From contig JAFNJB010000055.1 in assembly GCA_017601245.1 (NCBI GenBank), positions 56,455 through 120,454 of the forward strand: a stretch of DNA of 64,000 bases, written 5' to 3'. The stretch is from Candidatus Brockarchaeota archaeon (GTDB lineage: Archaea; Thermoproteota; EX4484-205; JAAOZP01). Position numbers and translations under genes: made by a program. Positions 33,652 through 52,046 of the stretch are shown here, piece after piece; the stretch's first letter is position 1; each line of letters begins with the position of its first letter. Under the pieces are notes generated by a model, which was not told the DNA's origin, ran no database searches, and saw only the letters and a program-made list of their open reading frames with translations.

Positions 33652-34846
33652 CAGGCTTTGAATCTAACTGTTGCCCTGAGCCCTCAGTTTCTTCTTTTAT
33701 AAGATTTTTAATAACTTGAGAAGTTTCAAGTATTCCAGCTATTTCCATGAAGGTTTTACTAGCCTCTTCTTCTACAATTGGTCTGATCGCATTCCAGAGA
33801 GTATCAGCAACTTCATCCATTTTTCCACATTCGAAAACGGATATTCCATATGATTTAGCTAGTTCTTTAGCTTTATCGTTTGCACTCGGTACTGCTAAGA
33901 GTATTGCATGCTTAACTTCTACATCAAGTATCTTAGAGAAGAACGAGATTACTGGAATTTCATTGATAGATTTATCTTCAAAAAATATATCTACTATAAT
34001 TCTGGTTTCTTCACTAGCCCTGTCCGTACCCGGCCTGTATGCTACCATTGTGAATGGATGCTCCAAGCCTGACTTACCGCTGAGGAAGACTGAGGTTTTT
34101 ACTTCCCAGAATGCAGACCTAAGATTCTTAACAACTGATCCGAGGTCGAGCGTTTCTATTTCAATTATTTCTTTTCTTTCTTCGTTAACACTGTAACCGT
34201 ATACTTCAAAAGGATTATAATCCTCCTCTCTATAGTTTTTCTCACATCTGCTACAGATAAATTCTTTTATCGGGTTCTGTGAAAACTCTCCGCATACTAA
34301 ACACTTGTAAAGAACTCCTTTCTCAACATAGTCGCCCCTTTCTTTTTTAATAGATTCGTTACACTTGGGACATATCATTAAACCATCGGTAACTGTGAAA
34401 ACAGTTTTGAAATCAATATATCCACACTTATTATGTTGAATCGATTCACCTCTCTTGATGCTGGTAGAGCCACAAGCAGAGCATCTAAGTCTAAGAGAAA
34501 CATTGAGAGACCCGCATTGTGGACACGCTATCCTTGTCTCTAAAAGCTCTCTAATTAAGAATCCGTCTTCAGCAAGCTCCTCAAGGATGTTTCTCACCAC
34601 CTCCCCCCTAGCATCCATGATTTTCTCAGCATCTACATAGCTTAATGCCCCTTCTAAACTGATTTTTGGCTCAATTCTGCTTATTTTTCTCTCTTTGAAG
34701 GCTTTGAGCAGGTTTAAGACTTCTTTCCTCTTATAAAGTTCCTTGCCACTGAATACCAGCATTTTCAAATACCTCCTTTTCTTCCTTACTAAAACTCCTC
34801 CTTCCCATCCTGCCGAAATAGACTCGTCCATTAGGGGGGAGTACAA
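33641..34846 (-). CDS. multi-zinc-ribbon protein with N-terminal wHTH-like region and C-terminal PD-(D/E)xK-like domain
   Basis: Three CxxC...CxxC ribbons (CPQCG...CSACG, CPKCN ... CLVCG, CSRCE). C-terminal IIVDIFFED ... LDVEVKH ... SANDKAKELAKSYGISVFE resembles the Mrr/restriction-endonuclease fold. Overlaps the presenilin-like gene by 11 nt. Confidence 0.45.
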   Translation of the reverse strand: MYSPLMDESISAGWEGGVLVRKKRRYLKMLVFSGKELYKRKEVLNLLKAFKERKISRIEPKISLEGALSYVDAEKIMDARGEVVRNILEELAEDGFLIRELLETRIACPQCGSLNVSLRLRCSACGSTSIKRGESIQHNKCGYIDFKTVFTVTDGLMICPKCNESIKKERGDYVEKGVLYKCLVCGEFSQNPIKEFICSRCEKNYREEDYNPFEVYGYSVNEERKEIIEIETLDLGSVVKNLRSAFWEVKTSVFLSGKSGLEHPFTMVAYRPGTDRASEETRIIVDIFFEDKSINEIPVISFFSKILDVEVKHAILLAVPSANDKAKELAKSYGISVFECGKMDEVADTLWNAIRPIVEEEASKTFMEIAGILETSQVIKNLIKEETEGSGQQLDSKPVEI

Positions 34847-37878: not shown

Positions 37879-39921
37879 TTGAAAAACATTAAAAGTTTAG
37901 TGCTAACCTCTCTTGTGATCCTGTCGTTAGTCATCTACCCCATCTTCGTCCCAGTGACAATCGTAAGGGCACAGGTTCCCAGGGAGGATACTCTCGTCGT
38001 CTCTAGTGGCTGGCAACCGGAAATTTTCAACCCCTTCTCCGGATCGCCCTGTTGGGGAACATGGCTAATGTATCCATCATTATACATGTACAGCTTTGTT
38101 TCTGATGAGCTAATACCTTACTTAGCTGAGAGCTACAGGTGGATCGACATTTACACTCTAGAAATTAAGATAAGAGATGCAGCAAAATGGTCAGATGGTA
38201 CTCCAATAACAGCTGACGACGTTAAATATACTCTTGAAGCCGGCAAGAGACTTGGCTCTCCCTGGGCGGGCGTGTGGGACTATCTGGAGAGAGTAGACGT
38301 AGTGGATTCTAAAACGGTTCGTCTAGTGACATCGGCTGCGAAGCTTAATACATTTACATTCTTACAAATATTATACTATCCACCCATAGTTCCAAAGCAT
38401 AGATGGGAGGTATTAGAGAAGCAATATGGTTCAAAGCTACCAACAGACTTTACAGATAGAGATCCAAAAGCAATAGTAACCGGCGGTCCATATAGAATGA
38501 AAGAATATTCAGAAGGAGAAACAGCTCTATACGAAAGAGATGACAATTGGTGGGGCAAAACTATCTTTGGTCTCCCCGCACCGAAGTATATCCTACACAA
38601 GAAGTATGCTTCTAACGAGCTCGCTGCTGCAGCGTTTGAAAAAGGTGAGCTTGACTTAGCGTCACACTTCTTCGTAAACATATGGGAAATGTGGACAGTC
38701 AAAGGCAAGGCTAGGGGAACATACTTGAAGAATCCTCCATACTACTTAGGCAGCGATCACGCTCTGCTCGTAATAAACTGGAAGGAGCCTCTCATAAGCT
38801 CAGATCTTAGGAGGGCGATTGCATTTGCAATCGACTATGAAAGATTAACTCGAGTAGCTCAATGTGGATACAGTATCAAGTCTTCTCCAAGCATGGTAAA
38901 ATGGGGTATGTATGAAAAGTGGATGGATAAGGAACTAGTTGAGAAATACGGTTACTACTACGATCCAAACAAAGCCAAACAAATACTCGACGCTGCCGGC
39001 ATAAAAGATACTAATGGTAACGGAATAAGGGAAATCGGCGGTAAAGACCTAAGGCTGAAGATAGAGGTTCCGATGGGATGGACAGACTGGATGGACATGT
39101 GTAACATAATAGCAGAAAATCTAAAGGCTGTGGGTATTGACGTAAAGCCAGAATTCCCAGACTTCTCTGTTTGGGCCGATAAAATAGACAAGGGAGACTT
39201 TGACATGGTCATATTCTGGTCCGTCGGTGGAGGCGTAGACCATCCGTGGAATATATTCAGGTATACACTTGATCCGAGATTGGACAGGCCTTGGGGAGGA
39301 AACATCGCTGGATACACTAAGACAGATGCCATGCCATTAATAGACCAGGCTGCTAAGCTCAATCCAGAGAAGGACTTTATACAGCTTAAACAAATATACA
39401 GCGAACTACAGCGGATTGCCCTCACAGACCTTCCAGTCATAGTGATGTTCGAGAAGCCACTGTGGTACGAGTATGGTGAGGACTACTGGGTTGGCTTTCC
39501 AAATGAAGAGAACAAGAGATGGTTTGCTGGAATGTACACTGAATCTTGGCCAAACAATCTACCGATGCTGTTCTACATTGCTAAGAAAGGTCAGAAATCT
39601 ATCGTACCGGAGTGGATAGAAAATACAAAGTTCCCAGTGTCGAAATTGTTCAAGGATTGGGCAGTGGCTCCAACGGTTGAGCAAAGAAGAATTGAAGAAA
39701 TAGGAGAAACGTTAAGAAGTCTCAGTGGTGCTCTATCTTCCATATCTTCTCAGCTCAGTAGTGCTGTTAGCGAATTGAGTAGTGCTGTTAGCGAAGTGAA
39801 AGCGGCATCAAAGAGTACTGTTGAATCCATCAATTCAATAAACAATCTCCTAATGGTTCAAATAGTTCTTACGATCATAGTCTTGCTTGCAGTAATCTTC
39901 TTGATAGTCAGAAAGAAATAA
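37879..39921 (+). CDS. oppA: ABC peptide transporter substrate-binding protein (family 5, OppA/DppA-like) with C-terminal TM anchor
   Basis: Signal peptide, about 600-aa SBP_bac_5-like body, Ser/Ala-rich linker with a 2x21-nt tandem repeat, C-terminal hydrophobic helix + RKK. TTG start. Confidence 0.8.
   Translation: MKNIKSLVLTSLVILSLVIYPIFVPVTIVRAQVPREDTLVVSSGWQPEIFNPFSGSPCWGTWLMYPSLYMYSFVSDELIPYLAESYRWIDIYTLEIKIRDAAKWSDGTPITADDVKYTLEAGKRLGSPWAGVWDYLERVDVVDSKTVRLVTSAAKLNTFTFLQILYYPPIVPKHRWEVLEKQYGSKLPTDFTDRDPKAIVTGGPYRMKEYSEGETALYERDDNWWGKTIFGLPAPKYILHKKYASNELAAAAFEKGELDLASHFFVNIWEMWTVKGKARGTYLKNPPYYLGSDHALLVINWKEPLISSDLRRAIAFAIDYERLTRVAQCGYSIKSSPSMVKWGMYEKWMDKELVEKYGYYYDPNKAKQILDAAGIKDTNGNGIREIGGKDLRLKIEVPMGWTDWMDMCNIIAENLKAVGIDVKPEFPDFSVWADKIDKGDFDMVIFWSVGGGVDHPWNIFRYTLDPRLDRPWGGNIAGYTKTDAMPLIDQAAKLNPEKDFIQLKQIYSELQRIALTDLPVIVMFEKPLWYEYGEDYWVGFPNEENKRWFAGMYTESWPNNLPMLFYIAKKGQKSIVPEWIENTKFPVSKLFKDWAVAPTVEQRRIEEIGETLRSLSGALSSISSQLSSAVSELSSAVSEVKAASKSTVESINSINNLLMVQIVLTIIVLLAVIFLIVRKK
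39757..39798 (+). repeat. 2 x 21-nt in-frame tandem repeat inside the oppA linker
   Basis: agtagtgctgttagcgaattg / agtagtgctgttagcgaagtg (20/21 identical), encoding SSAVSEL/SSAVSEV. Confidence 0.8.
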
Positions 39922-39973
39922 ATAAAAAAATAATAGAAAGAGTTATATACTACCTTTTTTCTTTTTCTATATA

Positions 39974-41014
39974 ATGTCTAGAGAAGAGAGAAAACCATTA
40001 AATCCAATGCTTATTTACTTACTTAGAAGAATGTGCTTTTTACTTGCGACGTTTTTCGTCTTCACGATAATAATATTCTCTCTTCCACGTATGATTCCAG
40101 GAAATCCATTAGCCATATTACTTAGAGATATTCTCAATAGAATGACACTTCAGCCGGAAACGATTAAGGAAATCGAGAGGAAATTACTTGAACAATACGG
40201 ATTGGATAAACCGTTACACATACAGTTCACAGATTTCGTATCTAGAATTTTTAAGGGAGATTTAGGAATTTCTTTCTATTTCCGTATACCTGTTGCGGAA
40301 GTAATCTTTTCTAGAATTCCTTGGACACTAATGCTACTCGTACCTTCGACGATAGTATCGTGGATAATAGGTAATTTCTTGGGGGCTATAGCTGCTTATA
40401 AGAGGGGGAAGGCAACTGATAACATATTGATGTCAATTTTCCTTACTCTATCTCAAGTACCATACTATTGGTTGGCAATGATATTACTCTTTATTTTTGC
40501 AGTCAGATACGAAATCTTCCCGCTTGGAGGAACTTGGGATACTAGTCGTTTCATAACCCCCTCTCTTACTTTAGAATTCATAACCGACTATTTGGCACAC
40601 TACATTCTTCCCTTTGCATCTATAGTTTTGAGTGCAATAGGCGGGTGGGCAATAGGCATGAGGGTTATGGCAATATACGAGTTGGGTTCTGATTATGTGG
40701 TATATTCTGACTCATTGGGGTTGAAGGATAGTAAAATCCTTGAGTATGTTTTTAAAAACTCCATACTGCCTCAAATCACCGGCCTCGCTTTAAACTTTGG
40801 TTCTGTAGTTGGAGGCCAACTTCTTACAGAGCTCGTTTTCAACTATAGAGGAATGGGGCGAATACTCTATGATTCCATAAATAAGCTAGATTATCCGTTG
40901 ATAGAGGGAATATTTATAATACTAATTTCTACGTTACTTATTGCAAACTTGATAGTGGATTTCATTTATGCCTATCTCGATCCTCGGGTGAGAACAGGCT
41001 ATGCAGAAGCGTAG
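39974..41014 (+). CDS. oppB: ABC peptide transporter permease (OppB/DppB-like)
   Basis: Six TM helices, BPD-transport EAA-like loop; directly follows oppA. Confidence 0.85.
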   Translation: MSREERKPLNPMLIYLLRRMCFLLATFFVFTIIIFSLPRMIPGNPLAILLRDILNRMTLQPETIKEIERKLLEQYGLDKPLHIQFTDFVSRIFKGDLGISFYFRIPVAEVIFSRIPWTLMLLVPSTIVSWIIGNFLGAIAAYKRGKATDNILMSIFLTLSQVPYYWLAMILLFIFAVRYEIFPLGGTWDTSRFITPSLTLEFITDYLAHYILPFASIVLSAIGGWAIGMRVMAIYELGSDYVVYSDSLGLKDSKILEYVFKNSILPQITGLALNFGSVVGGQLLTELVFNYRGMGRILYDSINKLDYPLIEGIFIILISTLLIANLIVDFIYAYLDPRVRTGYAEA

Positions 41015-41870
41015 GAAGTTATTATTAATTCCTAAGGAGATGTTCAAGATAAAGAAATTCACATTCAGCATTAGTGTACTAGTAGTGGTTATACTCGTTG
41101 CATTAGTGGGACCACCTTTATATCCTAAGTTAAACCTTTCATTATACGCTGGCACACCCGATACTCCTCCGAGTAACGAATTTCCACTTGGTACTGATAG
41201 GAACGGTAGAGATATACTGTCCCATCTCCTTATTGGCATAAGGACATCTCTTTACGTTGGAGTTATTGCAACAATCATAGCATTAACAATAGGAATTCTC
41301 GTTGGCAGTTTTGCTGGATTCAAGGGTGGTGTAATCGACGAAATACTAATGATGATTACTAACATAATATATACTCTCCCAGCGATACTTCTGATGATAC
41401 TCATAGCCTCATACCTAAAGGAGAGGTCGCCGCTTTTTGTATCTATAGTAATTGGTGTTACATCATGGCCTTGGCTGGCCAGAGCAGTCAGAGCGCAGAT
41501 AATGAGCCTTAAGGAGAGAGAGTTTGTACAAATGTCTAAGATGTCCGGTTTGAAGGGGTATGAAATCATATTCAAGGATCTATTGCCGAATATGGCGTCT
41601 TATATATTCATGAGCGTGGCCCTATTACTCTCAATATCTATGCTTGCAGAGGCAGGGTTGAGCATGATAGGCGCAGGTATAGATCCTTCAACGGAGAGCT
41701 CGTTAGGAGTAATGCTTCAAAGAGCTCAACAAGGTGAAGCAATCCGTTTAGGAAGGTGGTGGTGCTTCGTGCCTCCTGGAATCGTACTAGTCCTTATTAC
41801 AACATCACTACTCATGCTGTCAACTTCTATAGATGAATATTTTAACCCTAGGTTGAGAGGTGGGAAGTAA
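41001..41870 (+). CDS. oppC: ABC peptide transporter permease (OppC/DppC-like)
   Basis: 289 aa permease; 14-nt overlap with oppB. Confidence 0.85.
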   Translation: MQKRRKLLLIPKEMFKIKKFTFSISVLVVVILVALVGPPLYPKLNLSLYAGTPDTPPSNEFPLGTDRNGRDILSHLLIGIRTSLYVGVIATIIALTIGILVGSFAGFKGGVIDEILMMITNIIYTLPAILLMILIASYLKERSPLFVSIVIGVTSWPWLARAVRAQIMSLKEREFVQMSKMSGLKGYEIIFKDLLPNMASYIFMSVALLLSISMLAEAGLSMIGAGIDPSTESSLGVMLQRAQQGEAIRLGRWWCFVPPGIVLVLITTSLLMLSTSIDEYFNPRLRGGK

Positions 41871-42841
41871 TGAGCCTTCTCAAGGCTGAAGGCTTAAGAG
41901 CATATTACAATTCTCCAATTGGTCAAGTTAAGGCTGTTGAAGACATAAGCCTATCGGTAGAGGAAGATGACTTCATAGGTATAGCCGGAGAATCTGGCTG
42001 TGGAAAATCTACCCTTGCAAACGTTCTTATGATGAATATAAGGCCTCCTCTAAAGCTCTACGGAGGAAGGCTTTTCTTAAATGGCGAAGAAATATCGGAT
42101 AAAAGTAGGGATTATGTTAAGGAGAAATTCTGGGGTACGGTAATTTCCATCGTGCCCCAGGCTGCTTTAAACTCTTTAATGCCAACTAAGAGGACTAAGG
42201 AATTCATAATAGACGTTGTGCAGGCTCATAAGAAAATCAGTGAGAAAGAGATTATAGAGATGGCTAAGAACAAGTTCGTTGAACTCGGGCTTTCTCCAAG
42301 CGTATTAGACCTTTACCCGCATGAATTGAGTGGAGGAATGAGGCAGAGAGTGATCATAGTTGCCTCTACGATATTGAATCCTAAGGTACTCATAGCAGAT
42401 GAGCCGACGTCGGCACTCGACGTCTCAACTCAAAAACAAGTCTTAAAAATGATGTTAGACCTGCAAAGAAAGCAATCGATTAGGAGCACTATTCTCATAA
42501 CTCATGATATTGCTATACAGAGGCAGGTCTGCAATAAGCTAATAGTAATGTATGCGGGTAGAATTGTAGAGTATGGAAATGTAGATGATGTTTTGTATAA
42601 TCCCAAGCATCCGTACACAAAGGGTTTGATAAACTCGGTCCTAACACCGGAACCGGAAGTAAGGCGAAGAGGCCTGATGGCATTGTTTATACCTGGTGAG
42701 CCGCCGAATCTAGTTAATCCTCCACCGGGATGCTCTTTCCACCCCAGATGCCCGTTTGCAATGCCCAGGTGTAAATCAGAAACCCCAGGATTAACATATA
42801 GTGGTGATAGGGCTGTTGCATGCTGGCTGTATATACTCTAG
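41870..42841 (+). CDS. oppD: ABC peptide transporter ATP-binding protein (OppD/DppD-like)
   Basis: Walker A GESGCGKST, signature LSGGMRQR, Walker B LIADEPTSALD, C-terminal oligopeptide-transporter domain with a Cys cluster. Confidence 0.9.
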   Translation: MSLLKAEGLRAYYNSPIGQVKAVEDISLSVEEDDFIGIAGESGCGKSTLANVLMMNIRPPLKLYGGRLFLNGEEISDKSRDYVKEKFWGTVISIVPQAALNSLMPTKRTKEFIIDVVQAHKKISEKEIIEMAKNKFVELGLSPSVLDLYPHELSGGMRQRVIIVASTILNPKVLIADEPTSALDVSTQKQVLKMMLDLQRKQSIRSTILITHDIAIQRQVCNKLIVMYAGRIVEYGNVDDVLYNPKHPYTKGLINSVLTPEPEVRRRGLMALFIPGEPPNLVNPPPGCSFHPRCPFAMPRCKSETPGLTYSGDRAVACWLYIL

Positions 42842-42851
42842 GTGATGAGTC

Positions 42852-43649
42852 ATGTTATCAAGTATCATTTTGAAAGTTGAGGACCTGACCAAGGTGTACG
42901 AGACTGGTCTTTTCAAGAAGAAGTACATTACTGCAGTTGACAAAGTGTCTTTCAATGTTTCAAGAGGCGAAATAGTCTCTCTAGTCGGTGAAAGCGGTAG
43001 TGGTAAAACGACTGTTGCTAAGATTATATTAAGACTCCTACCTCCCACTTCTGGAAGAGTTTTCTATAACGGTGAAGACATATGGGAGAAGAAAAGCATA
43101 GAGGATTTGAAGAAATACTGGCGTGAGGTCCATGCGGTTTTCCAAGACCCATTCGCTTCTTTCAACCCTGTTTACAAAATAGACAGAGTGTTAGAGCAGG
43201 CTTTTAACCTAATGGGTACTCCTGTTGATGAAAACGCTATTAAAGAAGCATTGAAGGAAGTTGCATTATTGCCTAGCGAGGTCTTAGGGAAGTATCCCCA
43301 TGAGCTCTCCGGAGGCCAGAGGCAGAGATTAATGATTGCAAGATGCTTCCTGCTTAAGCCAAAGCTTATCCTGGCAGACGAGCCTGTTTCCATGGTTGAT
43401 GCTTCAACTAGAGCGAGCATAGTGAACCTTTTCCTCAGATTGAGAGACGAGTATAAGACTTCAATAATCTTCATAACTCACGACCTAGGATTAGCATACT
43501 TCGTCAGCGATAGAATATTAATCATGTATAAAGGTAGAATAGTGGAAGAGGGCTCACCTGATGAGTTAATAAGCTCTCCCAAGGACGCTTATACAAGGAG
43601 CCTCTTAGAATCCGTACCTCTCTTATATGGAAAATGGGCGGGCTTCTAG
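42852..43649 (+). CDS. oppF: ABC peptide transporter ATP-binding protein (OppF/DppF-like)
   Basis: Walker A GESGSGKTT, LSGGQRQR, ILADEP. Confidence 0.9.
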   Translation: MLSSIILKVEDLTKVYETGLFKKKYITAVDKVSFNVSRGEIVSLVGESGSGKTTVAKIILRLLPPTSGRVFYNGEDIWEKKSIEDLKKYWREVHAVFQDPFASFNPVYKIDRVLEQAFNLMGTPVDENAIKEALKEVALLPSEVLGKYPHELSGGQRQRLMIARCFLLKPKLILADEPVSMVDASTRASIVNLFLRLRDEYKTSIIFITHDLGLAYFVSDRILIMYKGRIVEEGSPDELISSPKDAYTRSLLESVPLLYGKWAGF

Positions 43650-43741
43650 ATTAAAAGACGAGTACGATTCATCACCATTCATCTAATACTATCGGGAAAC
43701 TAATGTTCAACTTTTAAATATGCTGAGCCCCAAATGATTTC

Positions 43742-45211
43742 ATGCAATTACCTGATAGAAATGAGCTGGAGAAAATCGGTATAGTGGCGAGTGATTCTAG
43801 TGAAACTAGGGCCAAGCTCCTCTTAGAGGAAAAACAGGAGCTTAGGGTCAGGTCTGAGGAAATAGTTGTGATCGATACTCCAAACGGGTATGTATTGGGG
43901 GTTCTTAGAAGTGGGAGCGGGGTTAATGAGGCTCTTAAAGCAAATGCTTACAGGCCTAGTGTAGCATACGCTAAGAAAGGGGGAGTGCCCTCTGGAGCCA
44001 GGGAGATATATACTTTCGAAATAATGGTGATAGGAGTGATAACAGAAAATGGGATTGAGCAGAACCGTCTGATAATACCTCCTAGGAGTAATGTTTACTT
44101 GTTTAGAAAAGGTGCTTCAAACCCTTTGGAGTATGTTGCCAGGAACAGACCAGTTATCTGGAAGGCATGTTTAGACGGTCATGAGGATTGGAAAATCCCG
44201 TTCGATAGTTCATTCTTAACATATCACATCGGCGTCTTTGGAGCGACTGGCAGCGGTAAGTCTTGGCTTACACGACATGTAATAATACCCGTCCTTCTTG
44301 AGGCGGGCTTCAAAGTCCTCGTACTGGATTGGAACGGGGAGGATTATGCTCCTTATTTCAAGGACAAGGCTATTCCAATATCGCGTTTAAAACTCGACGA
44401 GAAGGCTATTGTCAGTTACATCATGGAGAAGGCTGAATACTTCGGGTATTCAAGTTCATACAGAGATTCTAACCCGGTTAAGGAAGCCTTGGAAGATTAT
44501 GTTTCGAAAAGGTGGGAGGAGGTTTCGCAGAAAAAGCCTGAGGAAATATTCCTGGACATGAGGAGCTACTTGGACAATAGCATTAAGCAGATCGTGACTC
44601 GAGAGGATCAGAGAAAGAACGCTCTCCGCAAGATGGAGTATGGGTTTAAGAAGCTTAAACCAACTGATCTGGACGCGGTAAGAGGCTCTTTAAGCATTGA
44701 AGAATTGGTTGAAGAATTAAGCAGAGAAGAGGCGGGTATTAGAGTAATTGATATGAGCCTAGTAGGGAGTGAAGAGAAGCTATCCTTTTTCAACTCCTTG
44801 GCCAGATTCCTAGAGGAGGGGATGGAACTCGGAGAATCGCTTAACATCGCCCTCGTAATAGATGAGGGTCCCCAGTATGCTCCTTGGGAGCCTAAGGGGA
44901 TACAGGGTGAGTCAACTGAGCATATTAAGAACTTGTGTGCTTTAGGTAGGAAACATAGGCTTTGCATAGTAATAATATCACAGGGTATAGCTGGAGACAT
45001 AGGTATAAACGCCGCTGTGAGAAGGAATCTTAATACTCAATTCTTCGGAGCACTACACCCGTTGGATATGCAAGAAGCTGACAACTGGCTTAAACCCTAT
45101 GGAATACAGAGAGAGTACCTACTGTCTTTAAAACCAGGCCAGTTCTACTTCGTCGGAAAAGCCAACCCCTCGCCAATACCGCTTCTAATCTCTTTCAAAC
45201 CGGAGGGCTAG
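43742..45211 (+). CDS. HerA-like (FtsK/HerA superfamily, DUF87) ATPase with N-terminal HAS-barrel
   Basis: HAS-barrel-like N-terminus, Walker A GVFGATGSGKS, Walker B IALVIDEGPQYAP, CIVIISQ sensor region. 489 aa. Confidence 0.8.
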   Translation: MQLPDRNELEKIGIVASDSSETRAKLLLEEKQELRVRSEEIVVIDTPNGYVLGVLRSGSGVNEALKANAYRPSVAYAKKGGVPSGAREIYTFEIMVIGVITENGIEQNRLIIPPRSNVYLFRKGASNPLEYVARNRPVIWKACLDGHEDWKIPFDSSFLTYHIGVFGATGSGKSWLTRHVIIPVLLEAGFKVLVLDWNGEDYAPYFKDKAIPISRLKLDEKAIVSYIMEKAEYFGYSSSYRDSNPVKEALEDYVSKRWEEVSQKKPEEIFLDMRSYLDNSIKQIVTREDQRKNALRKMEYGFKKLKPTDLDAVRGSLSIEELVEELSREEAGIRVIDMSLVGSEEKLSFFNSLARFLEEGMELGESLNIALVIDEGPQYAPWEPKGIQGESTEHIKNLCALGRKHRLCIVIISQGIAGDIGINAAVRRNLNTQFFGALHPLDMQEADNWLKPYGIQREYLLSLKPGQFYFVGKANPSPIPLLISFKPEG

Positions 45212-45217
45212 TGCAGA

Positions 45218-46408
45218 GTGTCCTCTGAAACAGCATGGAGCAAGCTTCCAATAGATCTTCAAGAACAGTTCTACGATAGGGCTGAGAAAGAAGCGAGAAG
45301 GCTAGTGAAAATCATACGGGAGCTTGGTTCTCAAATAGAGGCTTTTAGAAATGAAATCGCTCCCTACATACATAGGTTTGACTTCGGGTCTTCTAAGGAA
45401 TTCTCCATAGCTGCAGTAGACGGCTCCTTTTCACCAAGGCCTGCGGAAACTATCGGAGCAAGGTTTGCAGTTTACTCAGCCGGGTTTATCATGATCAAAG
45501 GCGGGGAAATAGTTAAAGAAGGCTATCTCTCAGACGATATTCGACATGACCAATCGTATACACGAGAATTCTCCAGCGCGATTCTCCATGTTCAAGAATC
45601 TCGCTTAGAAAGGGAAGCGGCTTTGAAAGCCTTAAGCGAAAACCCAGATCTAATATTAATAGACGGTAGCTTCTTAGGCTTTGCCTATTCCCTCTTTAGG
45701 GTTAGGAGGATAATTCCGATCCCGGAATGGATAATCGAGAGGGCTAGAGAAACCCTGGAGATGACTGAGAAGCTACTCGACTCTGGAAAGTGCGCTGGAG
45801 TAGTGAAGAGGGGTAGGAGTAGGGCAATAGGCGGCTGGTTGTCTGTGAAGGAGGGCAGGAGAAATCCGTTGGTAGAATACTTGGATAAGCAGATCTTACA
45901 CTATCTTATGAAGCCTCCCGCACTCTTCAACTATATGGAGATGCTTAGAGAACCCGGGGTTCAAAGGATTTATAGCAGGGTTAGCGATTTGCTAAGCCAC
46001 AGCGTTGAGCTTAATCCTGAGAATGCTCTAGAATCCGCTAGGAAGTGGGCTATGGAGAGTCTTGTGAAAGCATTAGACGTGTCTGAGGAGAAGGCTAAAG
46101 CGTTGGAATCTAGAATAAACCGGATTCAGATAAAGGTTAGCGATGAAAACCCTCCTTTCGAGCTTGAGGTACCGGTTGGGTTTGAGGAAAAGACTCTCGA
46201 GGTTCTTCTATCTAACTCTGAGAATTTCAACATGGCTACTGGTTTACCTATGGCTATAGATCTCGTGGATGAGAACGTCACATTACCGGCTGAATTCACA
46301 AGGGAATTCGTCAGGGAGGTTGAAGCGAGGATCATTGATTTCTACGATGGTAGTCTTGGCGAAGTAAGAAACTTCTTCACTAATATGAATCCGCAGAAAG
46401 AGCTTTAA
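45218..46408 (+). CDS. NurA-family 5'-3' nuclease
   Basis: Conserved catalytic Asp contexts IAAVDGS and LILIDGS typical of the NurA domain. 396 aa; begins 6 nt after the HerA-like stop. Confidence 0.7.
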   Translation: MSSETAWSKLPIDLQEQFYDRAEKEARRLVKIIRELGSQIEAFRNEIAPYIHRFDFGSSKEFSIAAVDGSFSPRPAETIGARFAVYSAGFIMIKGGEIVKEGYLSDDIRHDQSYTREFSSAILHVQESRLEREAALKALSENPDLILIDGSFLGFAYSLFRVRRIIPIPEWIIERARETLEMTEKLLDSGKCAGVVKRGRSRAIGGWLSVKEGRRNPLVEYLDKQILHYLMKPPALFNYMEMLREPGVQRIYSRVSDLLSHSVELNPENALESARKWAMESLVKALDVSEEKAKALESRINRIQIKVSDENPPFELEVPVGFEEKTLEVLLSNSENFNMATGLPMAIDLVDENVTLPAEFTREFVREVEARIIDFYDGSLGEVRNFFTNMNPQKEL

Positions 46409-46443
46409 CTCTTTTATATCCTGCTTACCAATGATCATTAATA

Positions 46444-47397
46444 ATGAGTTGGATCATTCTTGCGCACGGTGATTGCGACGGTATTTGTTCAGCATCGCTC
46501 GCTACAGCAGCGAAGAAGGATGTGAAAATCATTTTCACAAGCCCGGCTAACCTCTTGTTTGAGTTAAAATCTATTCCAGAGGGAAATAATGTCATAATTA
46601 TGGATGTTGCTTTAACACACAAGTACAAGAATGAAATAGTGCTGGAATTGAAAAGACTATGCTCCAGTGGAGAAGTAATATACCTTGACCATCACCCACT
46701 CCCATCTAGGTTAAGCCTTAGAAAAATTCCCGTAAAAACGATTAAGAGCAAGGGTGCATGCGCCTCTGAGTTAACATATGTATTCTTCGAAGAAGAGCTA
46801 AATCCCGAGATGAGTAGAGTCGCCATCTACGGAGCTATAGGAGATTATAGTGACAATACTCCTCGAATCAAAGAGCTCTTGAAGAAGTGGGATAAGAGAG
46901 AGCTTTACCTTGAGGCCGGGATACTTGTGGCTGCGTTGGAGGGTGTTAAGAAGAGAGATTTCGGATTCAAGAGGAATCTTGTCAACTATCTTTCTGAAAA
47001 CAGGCTTCCGAGTTCCGATAGAAACTTAGTTGAAATAGCATTGCGTGAATCTGAGAAGGATGAGAAAATGCGTCAAGTAGTTAAGAATTCGGTGAAGAGA
47101 CATGGGAGGGTAGCTTACGTAATCAACATCGGATGGTCTCTCGGAAAGGCGGCGACATACGCTAGAGCATATGCTGATGCGCTAGTGGGGGTTGCTGCAG
47201 AGGAAATCGATGAAAATATTGATATGAGCGTGAGATCAGTAAGCTTGAATAACCTCCATAAAATAGTATCTAAAGTTGCTGAGGAGCTTGGAGGCGTGGG
47301 GGGTGGTCACGCCAATGCAGCTGGGGCGAGAATCCCCAAAGGGCTCTTTCCAGAGTTTATAAGAAGGCTCGATGAAATGCTTTTGAAGAATAGTTGA
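46444..47397 (+). CDS. DHH/DHHA1 phosphoesterase (NrnA/RecJ-like)
   Basis: DHH motifs HGDCDG, IMDVA, YLDHHP and DHHA1 GGGH (LGGVGGGHANAAG). 317 aa. Confidence 0.8.
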   Translation: MSWIILAHGDCDGICSASLATAAKKDVKIIFTSPANLLFELKSIPEGNNVIIMDVALTHKYKNEIVLELKRLCSSGEVIYLDHHPLPSRLSLRKIPVKTIKSKGACASELTYVFFEEELNPEMSRVAIYGAIGDYSDNTPRIKELLKKWDKRELYLEAGILVAALEGVKKRDFGFKRNLVNYLSENRLPSSDRNLVEIALRESEKDEKMRQVVKNSVKRHGRVAYVINIGWSLGKAATYARAYADALVGVAAEEIDENIDMSVRSVSLNNLHKIVSKVAEELGGVGGGHANAAGARIPKGLFPEFIRRLDEMLLKNS

Positions 47398-47469: not shown

Positions 47470-50022
47470 ATGAACGCGATGAAATTATCGTATTGCCTGC
47501 CACTAGTCCTAATACTTTTCTTATCATTATCTTCTTTTCAAATTACAAATAATGTTGCATCTGCAAAAACTTTGGTAACCAGAGTCTTTTACCCTTCTCA
47601 TGATGCTGTAGTTTATGAAGGCGATCCAGAACGGAACTTCGGTTCTCATGCTGAAATCGGCATTAATTACAGGATCGGTTTCAGAGACAGGTCTTTCATA
47701 ATGTTTGACTTAACTACTCTGCCTCCAGGCTCAACCATAGTTTCCGCAACCCTAAACCTCTACATGTACGATGCACCAAATTCCAGCAGAACCATTGCTT
47801 GTCATGAGATAGTTGAGGAACCGTGGAATGAGCTTAGTATAACTTGGAATAACCAGCCTTTAACAACAGTATTCTTAACCTCCGTGATAACTGGAACCCG
47901 CCCTAAAAAGCTTAGTTTTGACGTGAAAGAATCGCTTGTAAAATTCACCTGCAAGGATGAAATGGATTATATGCCGAATTACGGTTGGGTGTTGAAGGAT
48001 ATTAATGAAACTATAGGCGATAAGGATGATCCCCTTTGGATATGTTCGAAAGAACATCCTGATCAAGATAAACGTCCATATTTAGAAGTTAAGTTTTACC
48101 CGCCTCACCTAGAGTTAAACATTGAAGAGTCTTCGATAGAAGCGGGTAATTGGGTAAGGATTACAGTTCATCGAAAGACAAGCAGTAATGAGCCGATTAC
48201 TAGAGGAAGGCTTAAAATCAAATTCAGTTCTAATTCAACTTCAACCAGCAAAAAATTTTCAATAACCCCAGGGGGATCAGAAATAACCGAGCTAGTAATA
48301 CCCAATGAAGAGAGCTCCGTCACATTCTACTATTATGATGAAAAGGCTGGAACATGGAAGATAAGCGTCTGGACTGATGATTATGTAGATTACATGGGTG
48401 ATGCTAAAGTAATAAAAGTCAGGCCTGGACCATTATACTCATTCGGCTTTGAGCATATCTCCTCTCCAAAGATAATGGCTGCTCCATTTGCAATAACGAT
48501 TATTGCATACGATATTTACGGAAACGTTAAAACAGATTACACTGGGCAAAATACTCTTTCAGATACGACTGGTACGATAGAGCCTAATACAACCGGGAAA
48601 TTTAAAGATGGAAAATGGACAGGAAACGTGACTATAAGCAGAACTGGAAGAAACATTAAGATAACAACCGTTGGAGACGGTGCTATTGGCGAGAGTAACC
48701 CGTTCGATATTGCAATCGGCCCCCCCTCAAGAATTAGAATAGCACCGTCAGACTTCGCCGCAGCCCTAGGAGTCGTCTATTCTCATCTCAATATTTCTCT
48801 TACAGATATTGGTGGCTCAGAATCTTCAGCTACGACTGATGTATTGGTGAATCTTTCTACAAATTCTCCTGGTGGCGAATTCAGAGAACATGGAACAGGG
48901 AGGAAGATAACGAGCATAATAATCCCGGCTGGCAGGAGTACGGTTTACGTGGATTACTATGACACAGCAAATGGAACATGGATTCTAACAGCCTCGGCAC
49001 AAGGATTTGAAACAGGAAGGGCGAAAGTAAATGTGAAACCGGATACTACTCCACCTGAAATCGAAATAAAGATAAACGATCCGAAGCATGAAACACCATC
49101 CGGAATCTATGTATCGGGCTTAACGCCCATTTCCTTTTCGATTAAAGATGATCTCAGCGGTGTTATGGAAGTAAGATATAGGATAGATGAAAATTCTTGG
49201 AACTCATACTACTCAGATTTCAACCTAAACGCTTATTCTGAAGGCATGCATGTCATAACGTATTTTGGTATAGACAGAGCCGGTAATAAGGGAGCTGAGA
49301 AGAACATAACAATAATTCTAGATAAGACTCCTCCAAACGTTGAAAAAGTTTCCCCAACTGGAAAATTGTTTTCAAACTCAATAATAGTTAACTTCATCGC
49401 TAAGGTTAACGACTCGATGTCGGGAGTTAAAAAAGTAGAGTTATTCGTCGACGATATTTCTCAAGGGTTAATGAATATTAGCAGAGGAGAATATGTTAAA
49501 AAAGTGAACCTTTCCGAGGGATATCACGAATGGAGCATTAGGGTTATGGATAGAGTTGGCAACTTTTTAGATTTCAACTACTCTTTTACACTGTTCGTCG
49601 ATACTAAAAATCCAATAATTTATGAAATCTCGCAACCTTCAGCTGTATTCGGAGAATCGGCGATAATATCTTGTAAAGCTTATGATGAAGATTCCGGCAT
49701 TAAGGCTGTTTACCTTTTCTACTCTACGGATAAAGGTTCTAGTTGGATGGTTTTTTCCATGACGTTTCAAGGGGATACGTATATTGGTTCAATACCCCCT
49801 CAATTCATATTTACTGAAGTCCATTACTACGTCGAGGTTGTTGATAATGCTGGAAATAGGTTTCGATCAAGCCTATTCAAGTATACTGTAGGAATACCGC
49901 CCTGGCTTTATTCAATAATTGCGCTTTCAATTGCAGTCAGCATCTACATACTCCTTGCTAAGAAGTTGTTTGCGAAAAGAAAAACAAAATCCGACCGGGT
50001 TTTACAACAGGTTTCTGATTAA
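47470..50022 (+). CDS. large cell-surface protein: DNRLRE domain + Ig-like repeats + C-terminal TM anchor
   Basis: Signal peptide; N-terminal SATLNLYMYDAPNS...EPWNELSITWNNQP (DNRLRE-domain signature); repeated TPPE/TPPN beta-sandwich-like modules; C-terminal hydrophobic helix followed by KKLFAKRKTK. Confidence 0.6.
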   Translation: MNAMKLSYCLPLVLILFLSLSSFQITNNVASAKTLVTRVFYPSHDAVVYEGDPERNFGSHAEIGINYRIGFRDRSFIMFDLTTLPPGSTIVSATLNLYMYDAPNSSRTIACHEIVEEPWNELSITWNNQPLTTVFLTSVITGTRPKKLSFDVKESLVKFTCKDEMDYMPNYGWVLKDINETIGDKDDPLWICSKEHPDQDKRPYLEVKFYPPHLELNIEESSIEAGNWVRITVHRKTSSNEPITRGRLKIKFSSNSTSTSKKFSITPGGSEITELVIPNEESSVTFYYYDEKAGTWKISVWTDDYVDYMGDAKVIKVRPGPLYSFGFEHISSPKIMAAPFAITIIAYDIYGNVKTDYTGQNTLSDTTGTIEPNTTGKFKDGKWTGNVTISRTGRNIKITTVGDGAIGESNPFDIAIGPPSRIRIAPSDFAAALGVVYSHLNISLTDIGGSESSATTDVLVNLSTNSPGGEFREHGTGRKITSIIIPAGRSTVYVDYYDTANGTWILTASAQGFETGRAKVNVKPDTTPPEIEIKINDPKHETPSGIYVSGLTPISFSIKDDLSGVMEVRYRIDENSWNSYYSDFNLNAYSEGMHVITYFGIDRAGNKGAEKNITIILDKTPPNVEKVSPTGKLFSNSIIVNFIAKVNDSMSGVKKVELFVDDISQGLMNISRGEYVKKVNLSEGYHEWSIRVMDRVGNFLDFNYSFTLFVDTKNPIIYEISQPSAVFGESAIISCKAYDEDSGIKAVYLFYSTDKGSSWMVFSMTFQGDTYIGSIPPQFIFTEVHYYVEVVDNAGNRFRSSLFKYTVGIPPWLYSIIALSIAVSIYILLAKKLFAKRKTKSDRVLQQVSD

Positions 50023-50394
50023 TTCTTTTTCCGTTACTATCCCCACCATTTTACCGCCTTTTACAACAACAATTCTCCTTATCCCTTTTTCCTTCATCAT
50101 AGTTATGGCCTTAAGAATAGGTTCATCAGGATCTATGGTAACGAGCGGTTTACTCATTATCTCTTTACAAACCGTCTTTTTAGGGTCTTTATTCTCGATC
50201 AAAACCCTTCTAATTAAATCTCTTTCAGTAACTATTCCCTCTGGTTTTCCCCCGGATTCTACAACAACCGCTCCTATTCCATAGTTTATCATTTTATTGG
50301 CCGCTTCGAAAACCGGGTCTGTTGGTAAAACGCTTATCACAGGAGAAGACATTACATCTCTAACTTTCTTCTCTCCCTTCTCCAAGGTAGGCAT
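50002..50394 (-). CDS. CBS-domain pair protein
   Basis: Two CBS motifs (VRDVMSSPVISV ... GAVVV; KEIMSKPLVTI ... RRIVVV). 130 aa. Confidence 0.8.
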   Translation of the reverse strand: MPTLEKGEKKVRDVMSSPVISVLPTDPVFEAANKMINYGIGAVVVESGGKPEGIVTERDLIRRVLIENKDPKKTVCKEIMSKPLVTIDPDEPILKAITMMKEKGIRRIVVVKGGKMVGIVTEKELIRNLL

Positions 50395-50472: not shown

Positions 50473-51501
50473 CTATATGAGTTCGAGAATGAAAACATGC
50501 GGATAAAGGCCGCCTGTTTCCACTACTCTTTCATGGACTATTTTAAACTTTTTCGTTTTTAAAATCAGGCTCCTAAAAGAAGTTGCCTTAAGGTTTATTA
50601 TAACCATCCTCCCATCCGGCTTCATAATTCTATAGGCCGTATTCAAAAAGGACCAGTACAATTCCTTAAGATTTCTCTCTCTGCCTAATCTAACACCGTA
50701 AGGTGGATTAGTCACTATCTTATCTATTTCCCTACCGTAGTACTCGTCCAATCTCCGCGCATCTGCTGTTTTCAAAAATACGTATCCTTCAACTCCAGCC
50801 GCCTTAATGTTTTCACATGCTCCCTTTAGAAACCTGCTGTTTATATCACTACCTAGGATTTTTATCTTGCCATCCCATATTTGCGCAGCCTCTATGAGTA
50901 TTGTCCCTCCTCCACAGAAGGGGTCAAGCAGTGTATCGCCATCTCTTATGTCTGCCATCCTAAGCATTCCGTAGGCTAATGGCGCTTTTATCGCTGCCGG
51001 GTGATTAAATGGTCTTTCAAACCTTTTATGCAACGATTCTCTTGTTAACTGAATACCGATATAGCACTTACTGCCTATAACATCACAAATGATGTTTACG
51101 TCGAAATTCTCTAAATCGACCTTTTTCCCATACTTCTCAACTATTGCTTGACCAGCGTATTTTTGCACTTGAATGGATGTGAAGGAATGTTCTCCTATTC
51201 TTTGACTTGTAACCCTAAAAGTATTTGCATTATCCAATTCCTCTATTTCTATTTCCTTAAGATTCCTATAGATATCTGATAGGCCTTCATCGCTTGTTTT
51301 TATTTCAAACATAGTCACGTATTTTATAGCGTGGTAGATGGATCGTAACGAAAAAATCTTTCCGATTTCCTTCTCATCGATTTCCGTAATCAGCTTGCCA
51401 GGGAGATTATGGAAACTAGACACGGAAGCTCCTATTTTCTCGCCCACTTCCTTTTCCACAATATCCTCTATGCCCGGGTTAGTGGTTAACAGTATCTTCA
51501 T
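50473..51501 (-). CDS. THUMP-domain tRNA guanine-N2 methyltransferase (archaeal Trm-G10/Trm11/Trm14 family)
   Basis: N-terminal THUMP region, motif I LLDPFCGGGTILIEAA, motif IV NPPYG. 342 aa. Confidence 0.75.
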   Translation of the reverse strand: MKILLTTNPGIEDIVEKEVGEKIGASVSSFHNLPGKLITEIDEKEIGKIFSLRSIYHAIKYVTMFEIKTSDEGLSDIYRNLKEIEIEELDNANTFRVTSQRIGEHSFTSIQVQKYAGQAIVEKYGKKVDLENFDVNIICDVIGSKCYIGIQLTRESLHKRFERPFNHPAAIKAPLAYGMLRMADIRDGDTLLDPFCGGGTILIEAAQIWDGKIKILGSDINSRFLKGACENIKAAGVEGYVFLKTADARRLDEYYGREIDKIVTNPPYGVRLGRERNLKELYWSFLNTAYRIMKPDGRMVIINLKATSFRSLILKTKKFKIVHERVVETGGLYPHVFILELI

Positions 51502-51533: not shown

Positions 51534-52046
51534 TCACCAATGTTCGTAATGGACAATTTCTTCCAAGGGCTTACGGTCTACTACGGGTCCCTTTTCCTCA
51601 GCTGGATATCCTATTGGTGTCATGGCTACTACACGTATTTCTCGAGGAATTCCCAGTACTTTCTTAACTTCTTGCTCATCGAATGCGCCGATCCAGCATG
51701 TTCCAAGCCCCTCTTCCCAAGCTGCTAGAACCAGATTCTGCATGGCTATGGCAACGTCAACCTTCCAGTATTCTTCCCCGTCTTTCCTAGTCCACGCTTT
51801 AGCTGGATTTGCACATGCTACTATTATGACTGGAGCGTTTACAAACCAGTCTCTAGGATATGCTGCTCCCAGTTTCCTCTTTACTTCAGGATCAGTTACT
51901 ACAATAAAATCCCACGGTTGACGGTTTACTGCAGAGGGAGCAAGCCTAGCTGCCTCCAATACTCGTAGCAATTTATCTCTTTCAACAGGCTTTTCTAAGT
52001 ATTTTCTTATGCTTCTTCTCGTTCTAACCGCTTCGAACACGTTCAT
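51534..52046 (-). CDS. nitroreductase-family NAD(P)H:flavin oxidoreductase
   Basis: N-terminal RRSIRKY ... APSAVNRQPWDFIVV signature. 170 aa. Confidence 0.8.
   Translation of the reverse strand: MNVFEAVRTRRSIRKYLEKPVERDKLLRVLEAARLAPSAVNRQPWDFIVVTDPEVKRKLGAAYPRDWFVNAPVIIVACANPAKAWTRKDGEEYWKVDVAIAMQNLVLAAWEEGLGTCWIGAFDEQEVKKVLGIPREIRVVAMTPIGYPAEEKGPVVDRKPLEEIVHYEHW

Follow-up and report, generated by a model that had tools for sequence, protein, structure and literature searches.

The window, as the whole stretch of DNA analysed here is called, comprises 64,000 nucleotides (nt) of a Candidatus Brockarchaeota contig (JAFNJB010000055.1). Three consecutive open reading frames (ORFs) on its + strand encode a HerA-like ATPase (herA, 43742–45211), a NurA-like nuclease (nurA, 45218–46408), and a DHH/DHHA1 phosphoesterase (46444–47397; its gene and product are referred to simply as DHH), with intergenic gaps of 6 and 35 nt. 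An identical NurA protein and the nearest related loci are likewise labelled Candidatus Brockarchaeota and originate from the hot-spring metagenome-assembled genome (MAG) series DRTY, JZ, and GD2. We favour, as fairly probable, the reading that the locus is a core-genome, bicistronic, non-canonical HerA-NurA motor-nuclease beside a RecJ-like DHH gene with a promoter-like box of its own, the adjacency being lineage-specific. This reading and its rivals were rated separately, and they partly overlap.

The three co-directional ORFs, their spacing, and the motifs quoted for them in the initial annotation (GVFGATGSGKS and VIDEGPQYAP; IAAVDGS and LILIDGS; HGDCDG, DHH, and GGGH) were all found as stated in the ORF list and the translations, and Pfam agreed with the assignment of the three products to HerA, NurA, and DHH-DHHA1. 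Full-length homologues were obtained in the hundreds for each of the three proteins, and the HerA-like and NurA-like proteins also gave high-confidence AlphaFold models. Consequently, all three genes are real.

The HerA-like protein (489 amino acids (aa), ATG start) matched the Pfam DUF87/HerA central domain with an E-value of 9.7e-19. In its AlphaFold2 (AF2) model, which had a pLDDT of 90, an N-terminal HAS-barrel-like beta domain (residues ~9–121) is followed by a RecA-like core. The Walker A motif GATGSGKS occupies residues 167–174 and the Walker B motif VIDE contributes D374 and E375; when the family was aligned, G170, G172, K173, S174, D374, and E375 were invariant. Foldseek returned as top matches of the model the HerA-NurA complex of Thermococcus kodakarensis (9x1m, 3.6e-22) and HerA of Sulfolobus solfataricus (4d2i, 1.7e-21), in alignments of about 15% identity that extended over most of 4d2i and 9x1m with TM scores of 0.65–0.68. 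Bacterial anti-phage HerAs and Deinococcus HerA came close behind, all at about 15% identity. As judged from the predicted fold, in which both the HAS-barrel and the RecA-like core are present, the product of 43742–45211 is a HerA-type ATPase of the HerA/FtsK superfamily.

The NurA-like protein (396 aa, GTG start) matched the Pfam family NurA, PF09376, at 1e-9 (38.7 bits against a gathering cut-off of 21). Its AF2 model (pLDDT 92) has an RNase H/PIWI-like fold, for which S. solfataricus NurA (2ygk) was the best Foldseek match (4.7e-12), followed by the NurA proteins of T. kodakarensis and Pyrococcus furiosus, TdpB, and EndoV. In an alignment of 30 sequences, D68, E131, D149, D348, D351, and the C-terminal NPQK tail were invariant. 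The first three of these residues lie on a strand, a helix, and a strand that match those bearing D51, E105, and D126 in P. furiosus NurA, and the order of the residues corresponds to that of D51/E105/D126/H411 and the conserved C-terminus in the latter (PMC3300031), a C-terminus that reaches the active site of the partner (PMC3300031). D68, E131, and D149, together with D348/D351, are the predicted catalytic residues. Taken together, the Pfam score, the modelled fold, and the D-E-D metal site place the protein in the NurA family. Since the Walker A/B and NurA catalytic residues are invariant and stand at matching structural positions, both proteins look catalytically competent. It may be noted that single-protein sequence searches of the PDB gave almost no matches for either of them.

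For DHH (317 aa, ATG start), Pfam reported the domains DHH (7e-8; 33.2 bits against 28.1) and DHHA1 (1e-11; 45.7 bits against 25.9). The catalytic motifs are complete: H8-x-D10-x-D12, D54, D82-H83-H84, D134/D137, and G286-G-G-H289. Throughout the family alignment D10, D12, D54, D82-H83-H84, D134/D137, and G286–G288 are invariant, and H289 is nearly so. By motifs I–IV and the GGGH motif, therefore, the protein is assigned to the DHH/DHHA1 superfamily. The family consists of proteins of 313–332 aa, 44–50% identical, from Methanomethylicia, Bathyarchaeia, Brockarchaeota, and Desulfurococcaceae.

Archaeal RecJ/GAN/Cdc45-like nucleases and bacterial NrnA share the DHH and DHHA1 domains and all the catalytic motifs with this protein. 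When the family profile was run against the PDB, the best similarity was to P. furiosus RecJ (5x4i, 1.3e-17), GAN (5ghr, 4.8e-15), and MjRecJ2 (~1e-12); NrnA (8iu7) is of similar size, but its match was weak (4e-5) and fell below those of the archaeal RecJ proteins. Of the NCBIfam models for archaeal RecJ/GAN, NF053576 scored 73.5 bits against a cut-off of 360 and NF053575 37.4 bits against 850, and the alignments covered the terminal domains only, the middle/OB domain being absent. A full archaeal RecJ or GAN nuclease was accordingly rejected, on the scores below cut-off, the missing middle domain, and the length (317 aa compared to ~430–500 aa). DHH is best described, from its sequence, as a small archaeal-RecJ-like metal-dependent phosphoesterase, which probably either acts as an exonuclease on single strands or degrades oligonucleotides. 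A census of 103 neighbours of DHH genes elsewhere gave HD-domain, HtrA-like, CdvC/Vps4, and LysX genes; in look-ups of Methanomethylicaceae and Bathyarchaeia, the gene stood beside a CdvC/Vps4-like ATPase and LysW/X, or beside flavoprotein, NUDIX, and Lhr genes. As these are not replication genes, its classification as a replication (Cdc45/GAN-like) gene is unsupported, though still conceivable. In a separate locus, L018 (loci from other genomes and metagenomes are given as L-numbers), Lhr is a near neighbour of the DHH orthologue.

We compared the HerA-NurA pair with the canonical end-resection proteins. The NCBIfam HerA equivalog models NF040819 and NF040937 gave 17.4 bits against a cut-off of 970 and 15.3 bits against 800, respectively, and the NurA-like protein matched no NCBIfam NurA model. 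The HerA family profile, run against the PDB, matched DUF4297-HerA (4.7e-11) and anti-phage HerA (7e-9) at least as strongly as S. solfataricus HerA (2e-7) or T. kodakarensis HerA (2e-4), and is thus no nearer to the Sulfolobus and Thermococcus proteins than to the bacterial anti-phage ones; the NurA profile reached T. kodakarensis NurA only at E = 0.03. On these scores and E-values canonical orthology was rejected, and they bear out the suggestion of the initial annotation that the pair differs from the end-resection HerA-NurA. The window pair shares with canonical archaeal HerA-NurA (S. solfataricus 4d2i/2ygk; P. furiosus NurA 3tai; T. kodakarensis 9x1l–9x1p) both folds and the gene pairing, the classes of catalytic residues (Walker A/B and the D-E-D metal site), the conserved NurA C-terminus, and presumably the mechanism by which the motor feeds the nuclease. 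In contrast, the sequences are only ~13–16% identical, they fall below all the curated HerA equivalog cut-offs, there is no mre11-rad50 operon, and the fourth catalytic position of NurA is Asp in the window family and His in canonical NurA. Unlike the canonical proteins, the window family is limited to TACK lineages, in which it has several paralogous subfamilies. On these sequence comparisons, the pair belongs to a HerA-NurA family that is non-canonical, branches deeply, and extends across TACK archaea.

Extra pairs of this kind have been described before. Pyrobaculum and other Thermoproteales were reported in 2012 to carry several nurA-herA pairs per genome, at least three being known and a single one canonical, with one CRISPR-associated (PMC3396285), and ‘Cas HerA/NurA’ was catalogued in 2014 (PMC3973734). 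Like the window family, the extra Thermoproteales pairs are additional to the recombination pair, lie away from mre11-rad50, occur several to a genome, and co-evolve as pairs.

The canonical operon herA-mre11-rad50-nurA is not the arrangement at this locus, as neither mre11 nor rad50 is adjacent. Inspection of ORF sizes, of the GNH[DE] phosphoesterase motif, and of Rad50-type Walker A sequences gave no Mre11- or Rad50-like gene in the 64-kb window, as had been stated in the initial annotation: the only ORFs of at least 700 aa are those of NrdD and of a CBM96 surface protein, and no ORF of the window carries either motif. Among ~100 related loci examined, mre11/rad50 did not flank the pair, apart from a short Rad50-like ATPase upstream in seven Nitrososphaeria loci. 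A literature search on Brockarchaeota plus Rad50 gave no result.

The distribution of the pair was examined by scanning a genome collection for species representatives with the HerA-like family, which gave 173 encoding stretches; neighbours were counted with HMMs made from our own alignments, and 80 species-representative loci were kept. Full-length HerA homologues of 45–55% identity were found in Nitrososphaeria, Bathyarchaeia, Korarchaeia, Nezhaarchaeales, Conexivisphaera, Caldarchaeum-like, and Thermoprotei MAGs. At 77 of the 80 loci nurA follows directly downstream of herA, and one of the three exceptions is a contig end; the same order was seen at all the loci that were looked up individually. 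The neighbour-joining trees of HerA and NurA are congruent and contain at least three subfamilies. Two of the subfamilies can be present in a single genome: GD2_1 (L024 and L097) and JZ1_bin.63 (L052 and L062, contig JARVKA010000008) each have two copies of the family, and HerA-NurA pairs stand in tandem at L008. The censuses of upstream and downstream genes were heterogeneous, and no third gene is common to the whole family. It is clear that the conserved unit consists of two genes, herA and nurA. At three loci of subfamily C, a conserved 317-aa protein is encoded 45–70 nt downstream of nurA (L044, 12715–13668; L045, 3979–4932; L049, 12722–13675); it has no NCBIfam match and is not matched by the DHH HMM, and its length coincides with that of the window DHH.

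Upstream of herA, a TFB recognition element (BRE)/TATA-like element, GTTCAACTTTTAAATATG, lies at 43705–43722 on the + strand, with its TATA core (43712–43720) 21 nt before the ATG. The motif GTTCAACTTTTTAAA(C/T)A is kept ~21–25 nt before the herA ATG in ~15 relatives of the clade, despite upstream genes as different as an ABC importer, NrdD, HTH, and Lhr genes. The 3′ end of herA contains a Shine-Dalgarno-like GGAGG (45202–45206, + strand), which precedes the nurA GTG by 11 nt, and all the clade relatives have GGAG or GGGG in the herA end, 8–12 nt before the nurA start. The 6-nt gap is conserved as well. This site, together with the 6-nt gap, suggests that translation of nurA is coupled to that of herA, and the conserved BRE/TATA-like box would be the archaeal promoter that drives the coupled bicistron.

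A different picture emerged for DHH. On the HerA side, DHH follows nurA only at the 13 loci at which HerA is at least 81% identical to that of the window. The nearest outgroup, L033 (HerA 73% identical), has herA-nurA-CBM96 without DHH, and no gene of the DHH family adjoins the pair at the ~64 more distant HerA-NurA loci. From the DHH side, for which 80 metagenome loci were surveyed, the pair lies upstream at the five loci with DHH at least 65% identical and at none of the five with 60–63% identity; among ~70 loci at 41–57% identity it is near DHH in L147 only, in divergent orientation. Hence, the adjacency of DHH to the pair is specific to one Brockarchaeota-like clade. The plainer account that the initial annotation had set against its own proposal, namely a relocated pair orthologous to the Sulfolobus end-resection proteins next to a conserved DHH gene without fixed synteny, holds in its second half, since DHH is a conserved gene unlinked to the pair elsewhere.

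The 35-nt spacer between nurA and DHH contains a TATA-like box, CTTTTATAT (46411–46419, + strand), 24 nt before the ATG of DHH, and no Shine-Dalgarno site. Most clade relatives have CTTTTATAC/T at ~24–30 nt upstream of DHH. The TATA-like box is still present in L022, although nurA and DHH are there 820 nt apart with an 88-aa ORF between them, and the unlinked DHH orthologues have a conserved box of their own at the same distance. It probably acts as the promoter of DHH. When linked and unlinked DHH orthologues were compared, no indel or fixed substitution was found to separate them. The proposal that the three genes form one module is not supported by these results, as the conserved unit has two genes (77/80), the DHH adjacency is confined to one clade, and DHH has its own TATA-like box.

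Several observations weigh against the reading of a bicistron with a lineage-specific neighbour. Within the clade, DHH stays beside nurA at 13 of 14 species-level loci, even where CBM96 is lacking (L021, L022, L032), and since this adjacency is so stable, co-transcription by read-through is possible. In L147 (1–3438), the orthologue of the window DHH is divergent from herA-nurA across a 63-nt spacer. In other lineages, the pair repeatedly has a DNA-processing gene (Rad50-like, beta-CASP, Lhr, RecJ-family) closely attached to it as a third partner. A minority of relatives are found in defence-like settings (L008, L002, L067, L097), and an antiviral defence role has recently been proposed even for canonical HerA-NurA (PMC12977600).

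Of the third partners, the Rad50/SMC-like ATPase (545–585 aa) is encoded directly upstream of the pair, with gaps of −4 to +71 nt, in seven Nitrososphaeria loci (L062, 8271–12668; L060, L069, L070, L086, L092, L093), with no Mre11 gene adjacent. It carries a Walker A GSGKTS, a central CPLCG resembling the CxxC hook, the signature MSTGE, and a Walker B LLLDEPEEGLD; its best curated scores were all far below cut-off (arcadin-4, 96–113 bits; ASRP, 62; Rad50, 53; PADLOC LmuB, 78–90). A beta-CASP metallo-beta-lactamase (Lactamase_B_2 and RMMBL, with a weak match to the RNase J family) is encoded 3–17 nt downstream of nurA in two aigarchaeal or Nitrososphaerota lineages (HR01, L004 10643–12040/L082; and L079, 12621–14048). 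An Lhr-type large helicase gene adjoins the pair upstream in L033 (7060–9936) and downstream in L073 (12638–15379), and lies 1.8–3.4 kb away in L077 and L081. In the Bathyarchaeia MAG locus L065 (7429–8625), a gene for a 398-aa protein of the archaeal RecJ family (204 bits against a cut-off of 360) is located 378 nt upstream of herA. Because such DNA-processing genes recur beside the pair, a functional link of the pair to a nuclease partner is plausible, and DNA-end processing is the likely functional theme of the HerA-NurA family.

These couplings also bear on a rival explanation, that HerA, NurA, and DHH form a true three-component machine, the RecJ-like DHH having been recruited in the window lineage as an accessory nuclease of the HerA-NurA motor. 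DHH might then remove the single strands or short oligonucleotides that NurA sets free, or resect a strand, and so fill the nuclease role of Mre11 in the canonical operon. The adjacency in 13 of the 14 clade loci, steadier than that of CBM96, speaks for such a machine, as do the partners of other lineages (the mini-Rad50, beta-CASP, Lhr, and RecJ-family genes just described) and the divergent DHH of L147, which belongs to a distant lineage. So does Deinococcus radiodurans, in which HerA binds and stimulates RecJ while NurA competes (PMC4663267); there, a HerA ATPase, a NurA nuclease, and a DHH-family nuclease act on the same DNA ends. DrRecJ, however, is one of the large bacterial RecJ proteins; it has an OB fold, and its C-terminal domain is dedicated to the binding of HerA, whereas the window DHH has two domains in 317 aa, no extra domain, and no clade-specific residues; moreover, the Deinococcus evidence is one of protein-protein interaction (PMC4663267) and that for the window is gene adjacency. 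About 70 DHH loci (41–63% identity) do without the pair and ~64 HerA-NurA loci outside the clade do without DHH, as does the nearest outgroup L033, and DHH is preceded by a promoter-like box of its own but by no Shine-Dalgarno site. We therefore consider a three-component machine rather unlikely. The claim that the combination of HerA, NurA, and DHH had never been characterised is not supported: the D. radiodurans HerA-NurA-RecJ interplay (PMC4663267) is a precedent for it, and the Thermoproteales nurA-herA paralogues (PMC3396285, PMC3973734) are precedents for the extra pair. The window pair is new and uncharacterised, but the kind of system is already known.

The Rad50-like partner is equally relevant to another rival, according to which the pair is the sole HerA-NurA of the organism, a relocated and very divergent orthologue that carries out classical double-strand-break resection with Mre11-Rad50 encoded elsewhere. 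HerA-NurA has been annotated as a homologous-recombination pair in thermophilic Nitrososphaeria (PMC5797428), and the proteins so annotated may belong to the window family; some Nitrososphaeria pairs are translationally coupled to the Rad50-like ATPase with its CxxC hook motif, and the repair helicase Lhr adjoins several loci. The scores against the canonical HerA equivalogs, however, fall short by a factor of ~50, several genomes have two copies of the family (L024/L097, L052/L062, and the tandem of L008), and Thermoproteales have three or more pairs of which one is canonical (PMC3396285). A relocated orthologue of this sort appears quite improbable.

We also examined the genomic surroundings of the pair. 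At 13–14 Bathyarchaeia loci, the orthologue of a THUMP/UPF0020 methyltransferase gene is directly upstream of herA, and at 8 or more Bathyarchaeia loci a nitroreductase gene is directly downstream of nurA, which gives the order THUMP methyltransferase-herA-nurA-nitroreductase. The same two genes are found 3–4.6 kb from the pair in the window, as a Pfam-annotated THUMP/UPF0020 methyltransferase gene (50473–51501, − strand) and a nitroreductase gene (51534–52046, − strand), relics of the ancestral neighbourhood that serve here as context only. In the clade of the window, the THUMP gene lies 2.5–8 kb downstream and is inverted, and the two genes taken together are 2.5–9 kb away. Elsewhere, the neighbours of the pair include ThrRS, EF-1alpha, SRP54, Pus10, CTP synthase, ArgRS, and fibrillarin/Nop5. 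As THUMP and nitroreductase orthologues are found near the pair both in Bathyarchaeia and in the window clade, the pair stands in an old, vertically inherited neighbourhood, into which the DHH, CBM96, and CBS genes were inserted or rearranged in the window lineage.

Nothing in the window pointed to mobility. The three genes have GC z-scores of 1.1–1.7, and their GC, GC3, and codon usage lie inside the spread of the window, so the check for compositional deviation proposed in the initial annotation gave ordinary values. No flanking repeats were found around the three genes, and no repeat array in the window; since the Rfam and tRNA scans of the window were both empty, it has no tRNA integration site. 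No relatives were found on IMG/VR viral contigs, and no cas genes among the annotated neighbours in the window. A mobile or defence island was rejected on this normal composition, the lack of flanking repeats, array, and tRNA site, and the lack of an IMG/VR relative. The suggestion of a paralogous defence module is likewise unsupported for the window copy, given its core-genome synteny, normal composition, and freedom from viral or mobile signs. In one Thermoprotei MAG (L001, 1363–3151), a TnpB/Cas12f-like gene and a serine resolvase, an IS607-type element, were seen ~5 kb upstream of HerA-NurA.

The defence-like settings of the minority are as follows. L008 (1–13871; JGI 3300005858) has two pairs of different subfamilies in tandem right after a type III Cas10/Cmr cassette, Cas4, and a Csx1-like gene. 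In L002, the pair lies among HEPN/nucleotidyltransferase pairs. Directly upstream of divergent HerA-NurA copies in L067 (4432–5355) and L097 (341–1219), with gaps of −4 and 51 nt, there is an N6/N4 DNA methyltransferase gene (SPPY motif), and this methylase-herA-nurA arrangement resembles a modification-linked defence system. L097 is the second copy in the Brockarchaeota MAG GD2_1, which also carries the window-like copy L024.

With these settings in mind, the rival that the pair, with or without DHH, is an anti-virus or anti-plasmid module that destroys invading linear DNA in the manner of the bacterial HerA-effector systems and TdpAB was weighed. The bacterial anti-phage systems Sir2-HerA, DUF4297-HerA, and TdpAB likewise combine a HerA hexamer with a nuclease or effector, TdpB being NurA-like and a match of our NurA model. 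The window HerA is as similar to the anti-phage HerAs as to the canonical ones, in profiles and in Foldseek. Apart from the relatives beside type III CRISPR-Cas (L008), HEPN/nucleotidyltransferase pairs (L002), and a DNA methylase (L067, L097), CRISPR-associated nurA-herA pairs are known in Thermoproteales (PMC3396285, PMC3973734), and the 2026 cryo-electron microscopy (cryo-EM) study of T. kodakarensis HerA-NurA found that both strands are degraded, its authors doubting a direct role in resection and suggesting antiviral defence (PMC12977600). PADLOC gave weak, partial matches of a generic P-loop kind for the HerA-like protein (mad8, 2.8e-13; HerA, 4.7e-13; best 48 bits) and none for the NurA-like protein or DHH, and no Sir2 or DUF4297 gene was nearby among the Pfam-annotated neighbours. 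With HerA matches so weak and no cognate effector, the known anti-phage HerA systems of PADLOC (among them Sir2-HerA, DUF4297-HerA, and MADS) were rejected; the window differs from them in lacking such effectors and in its core-genome context, which is not that of a defence island. The CRISPR-associated type of Thermoproteales was also rejected for the window copy, as neither csm6 nor a cas gene is among the annotated neighbours of the pair and the window has no repeat array. In addition, the window copy and most relatives sit among housekeeping genes in deeply conserved synteny, HerA identity between classes is 45–50%, a slow divergence for a defence gene, composition is normal, and viral contigs yielded no relative. 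An anti-virus or anti-plasmid module is, in our estimate, unlikely for the window copy.

Returning to the preferred reading, that of a HerA-NurA bicistron beside an independently promoted DHH gene, the locus would comprise two transcription units. The first would start at the conserved BRE/TATA box, with the GGAGG in the herA end coupling the translation of nurA. To judge from its homology in fold and catalytic residues, the HerA-like protein should form a hexameric ring of HAS-barrel and RecA-like ATPase core. Docked on the ring face would be a NurA-like dimer, to which the ring would feed double-stranded DNA for strand separation and cleavage at the D-E-D(-D) metal site, so that the net activity would be an ATP-driven processing or destruction of linear DNA ends. 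This mechanism is borrowed from the cryo-EM structures of T. kodakarensis HerA-NurA (PMC12977600) and from the structure of P. furiosus NurA (PMC3300031). The second unit would be DHH with its own TATA-like box, a gene common in TACK archaea that is a neighbour of the pair in one Brockarchaeota-like clade only. Gene structure, family membership, conserved residues, synteny, and promoter-like motifs could be read from the data, along with the predicted folds; oligomeric state, activity, transcription units, and cellular role are proposed from them.

Because the window copy is chromosomal, vertically inherited, and located among housekeeping genes, its most likely role is DNA-end processing in repair/recombination, or surveillance for broken DNA; a mobile defence cassette is less likely. 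The three genes probably stand together as a peculiarity of one lineage and do not make up a new system, so that their combination adds little on its own. The pair itself is of wider concern, as the role of archaeal HerA-NurA is debated between end resection and destruction of foreign DNA, and the 2026 Thermococcus structures argue against direct resection (PMC12977600). Extra HerA-NurA pairs, one or more per genome and very divergent, occupy stable chromosomal positions in many uncultured TACK archaea, and the enzyme partners that vary with lineage are natural variants for testing what HerA-NurA motor-nuclease machines do. It is a speculative and unlikely proposition, but TACK archaea may carry an undescribed, Mre11-independent DNA-end-processing system, in which a non-canonical HerA-NurA core is joined by third components interchangeable between lineages, such as Lhr or a beta-CASP nuclease in some and a DNA methylase or a short Rad50-like ATPase carrying a CxxC hook in others; in the Brockarchaeota-like clade, the small RecJ-like DHH nuclease would take the nuclease role of Mre11.

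The flanks of the three genes agreed with the initial annotation: an Opp-type ABC importer (37879–43649) lies upstream of herA and the gene of an 850-aa CBM96/Ig-like surface protein (47470–50022) downstream of DHH, both annotated by Pfam. The CBM96 gene is kept downstream of DHH in most clade relatives and is missing in L021, L022, and L032; in the window, its 3′ end overlaps that of a convergent CBS-domain gene (50002–50394) by 21 nt. The remaining genes of the window are ordinary metabolic or housekeeping genes (TldD/PmbA, adenylosuccinate lyase, NAD(P)HX repair, NrdD, FGGY kinase, and an Lhr helicase fragment), the Lhr fragment being at the window start (1–2089, − strand). Upstream of NrdD, a 401-aa protein (33641–34846, − strand) has a match to TackOD1 (Thaumarchaeal output domain 1), and is kept in L005 and L011. 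NrdD of the window (35097–37286) has 729 aa and no intein, and that of the close relative L011 (1901–6655) has 1584 aa with Hint, intein, and LAGLIDADG matches.

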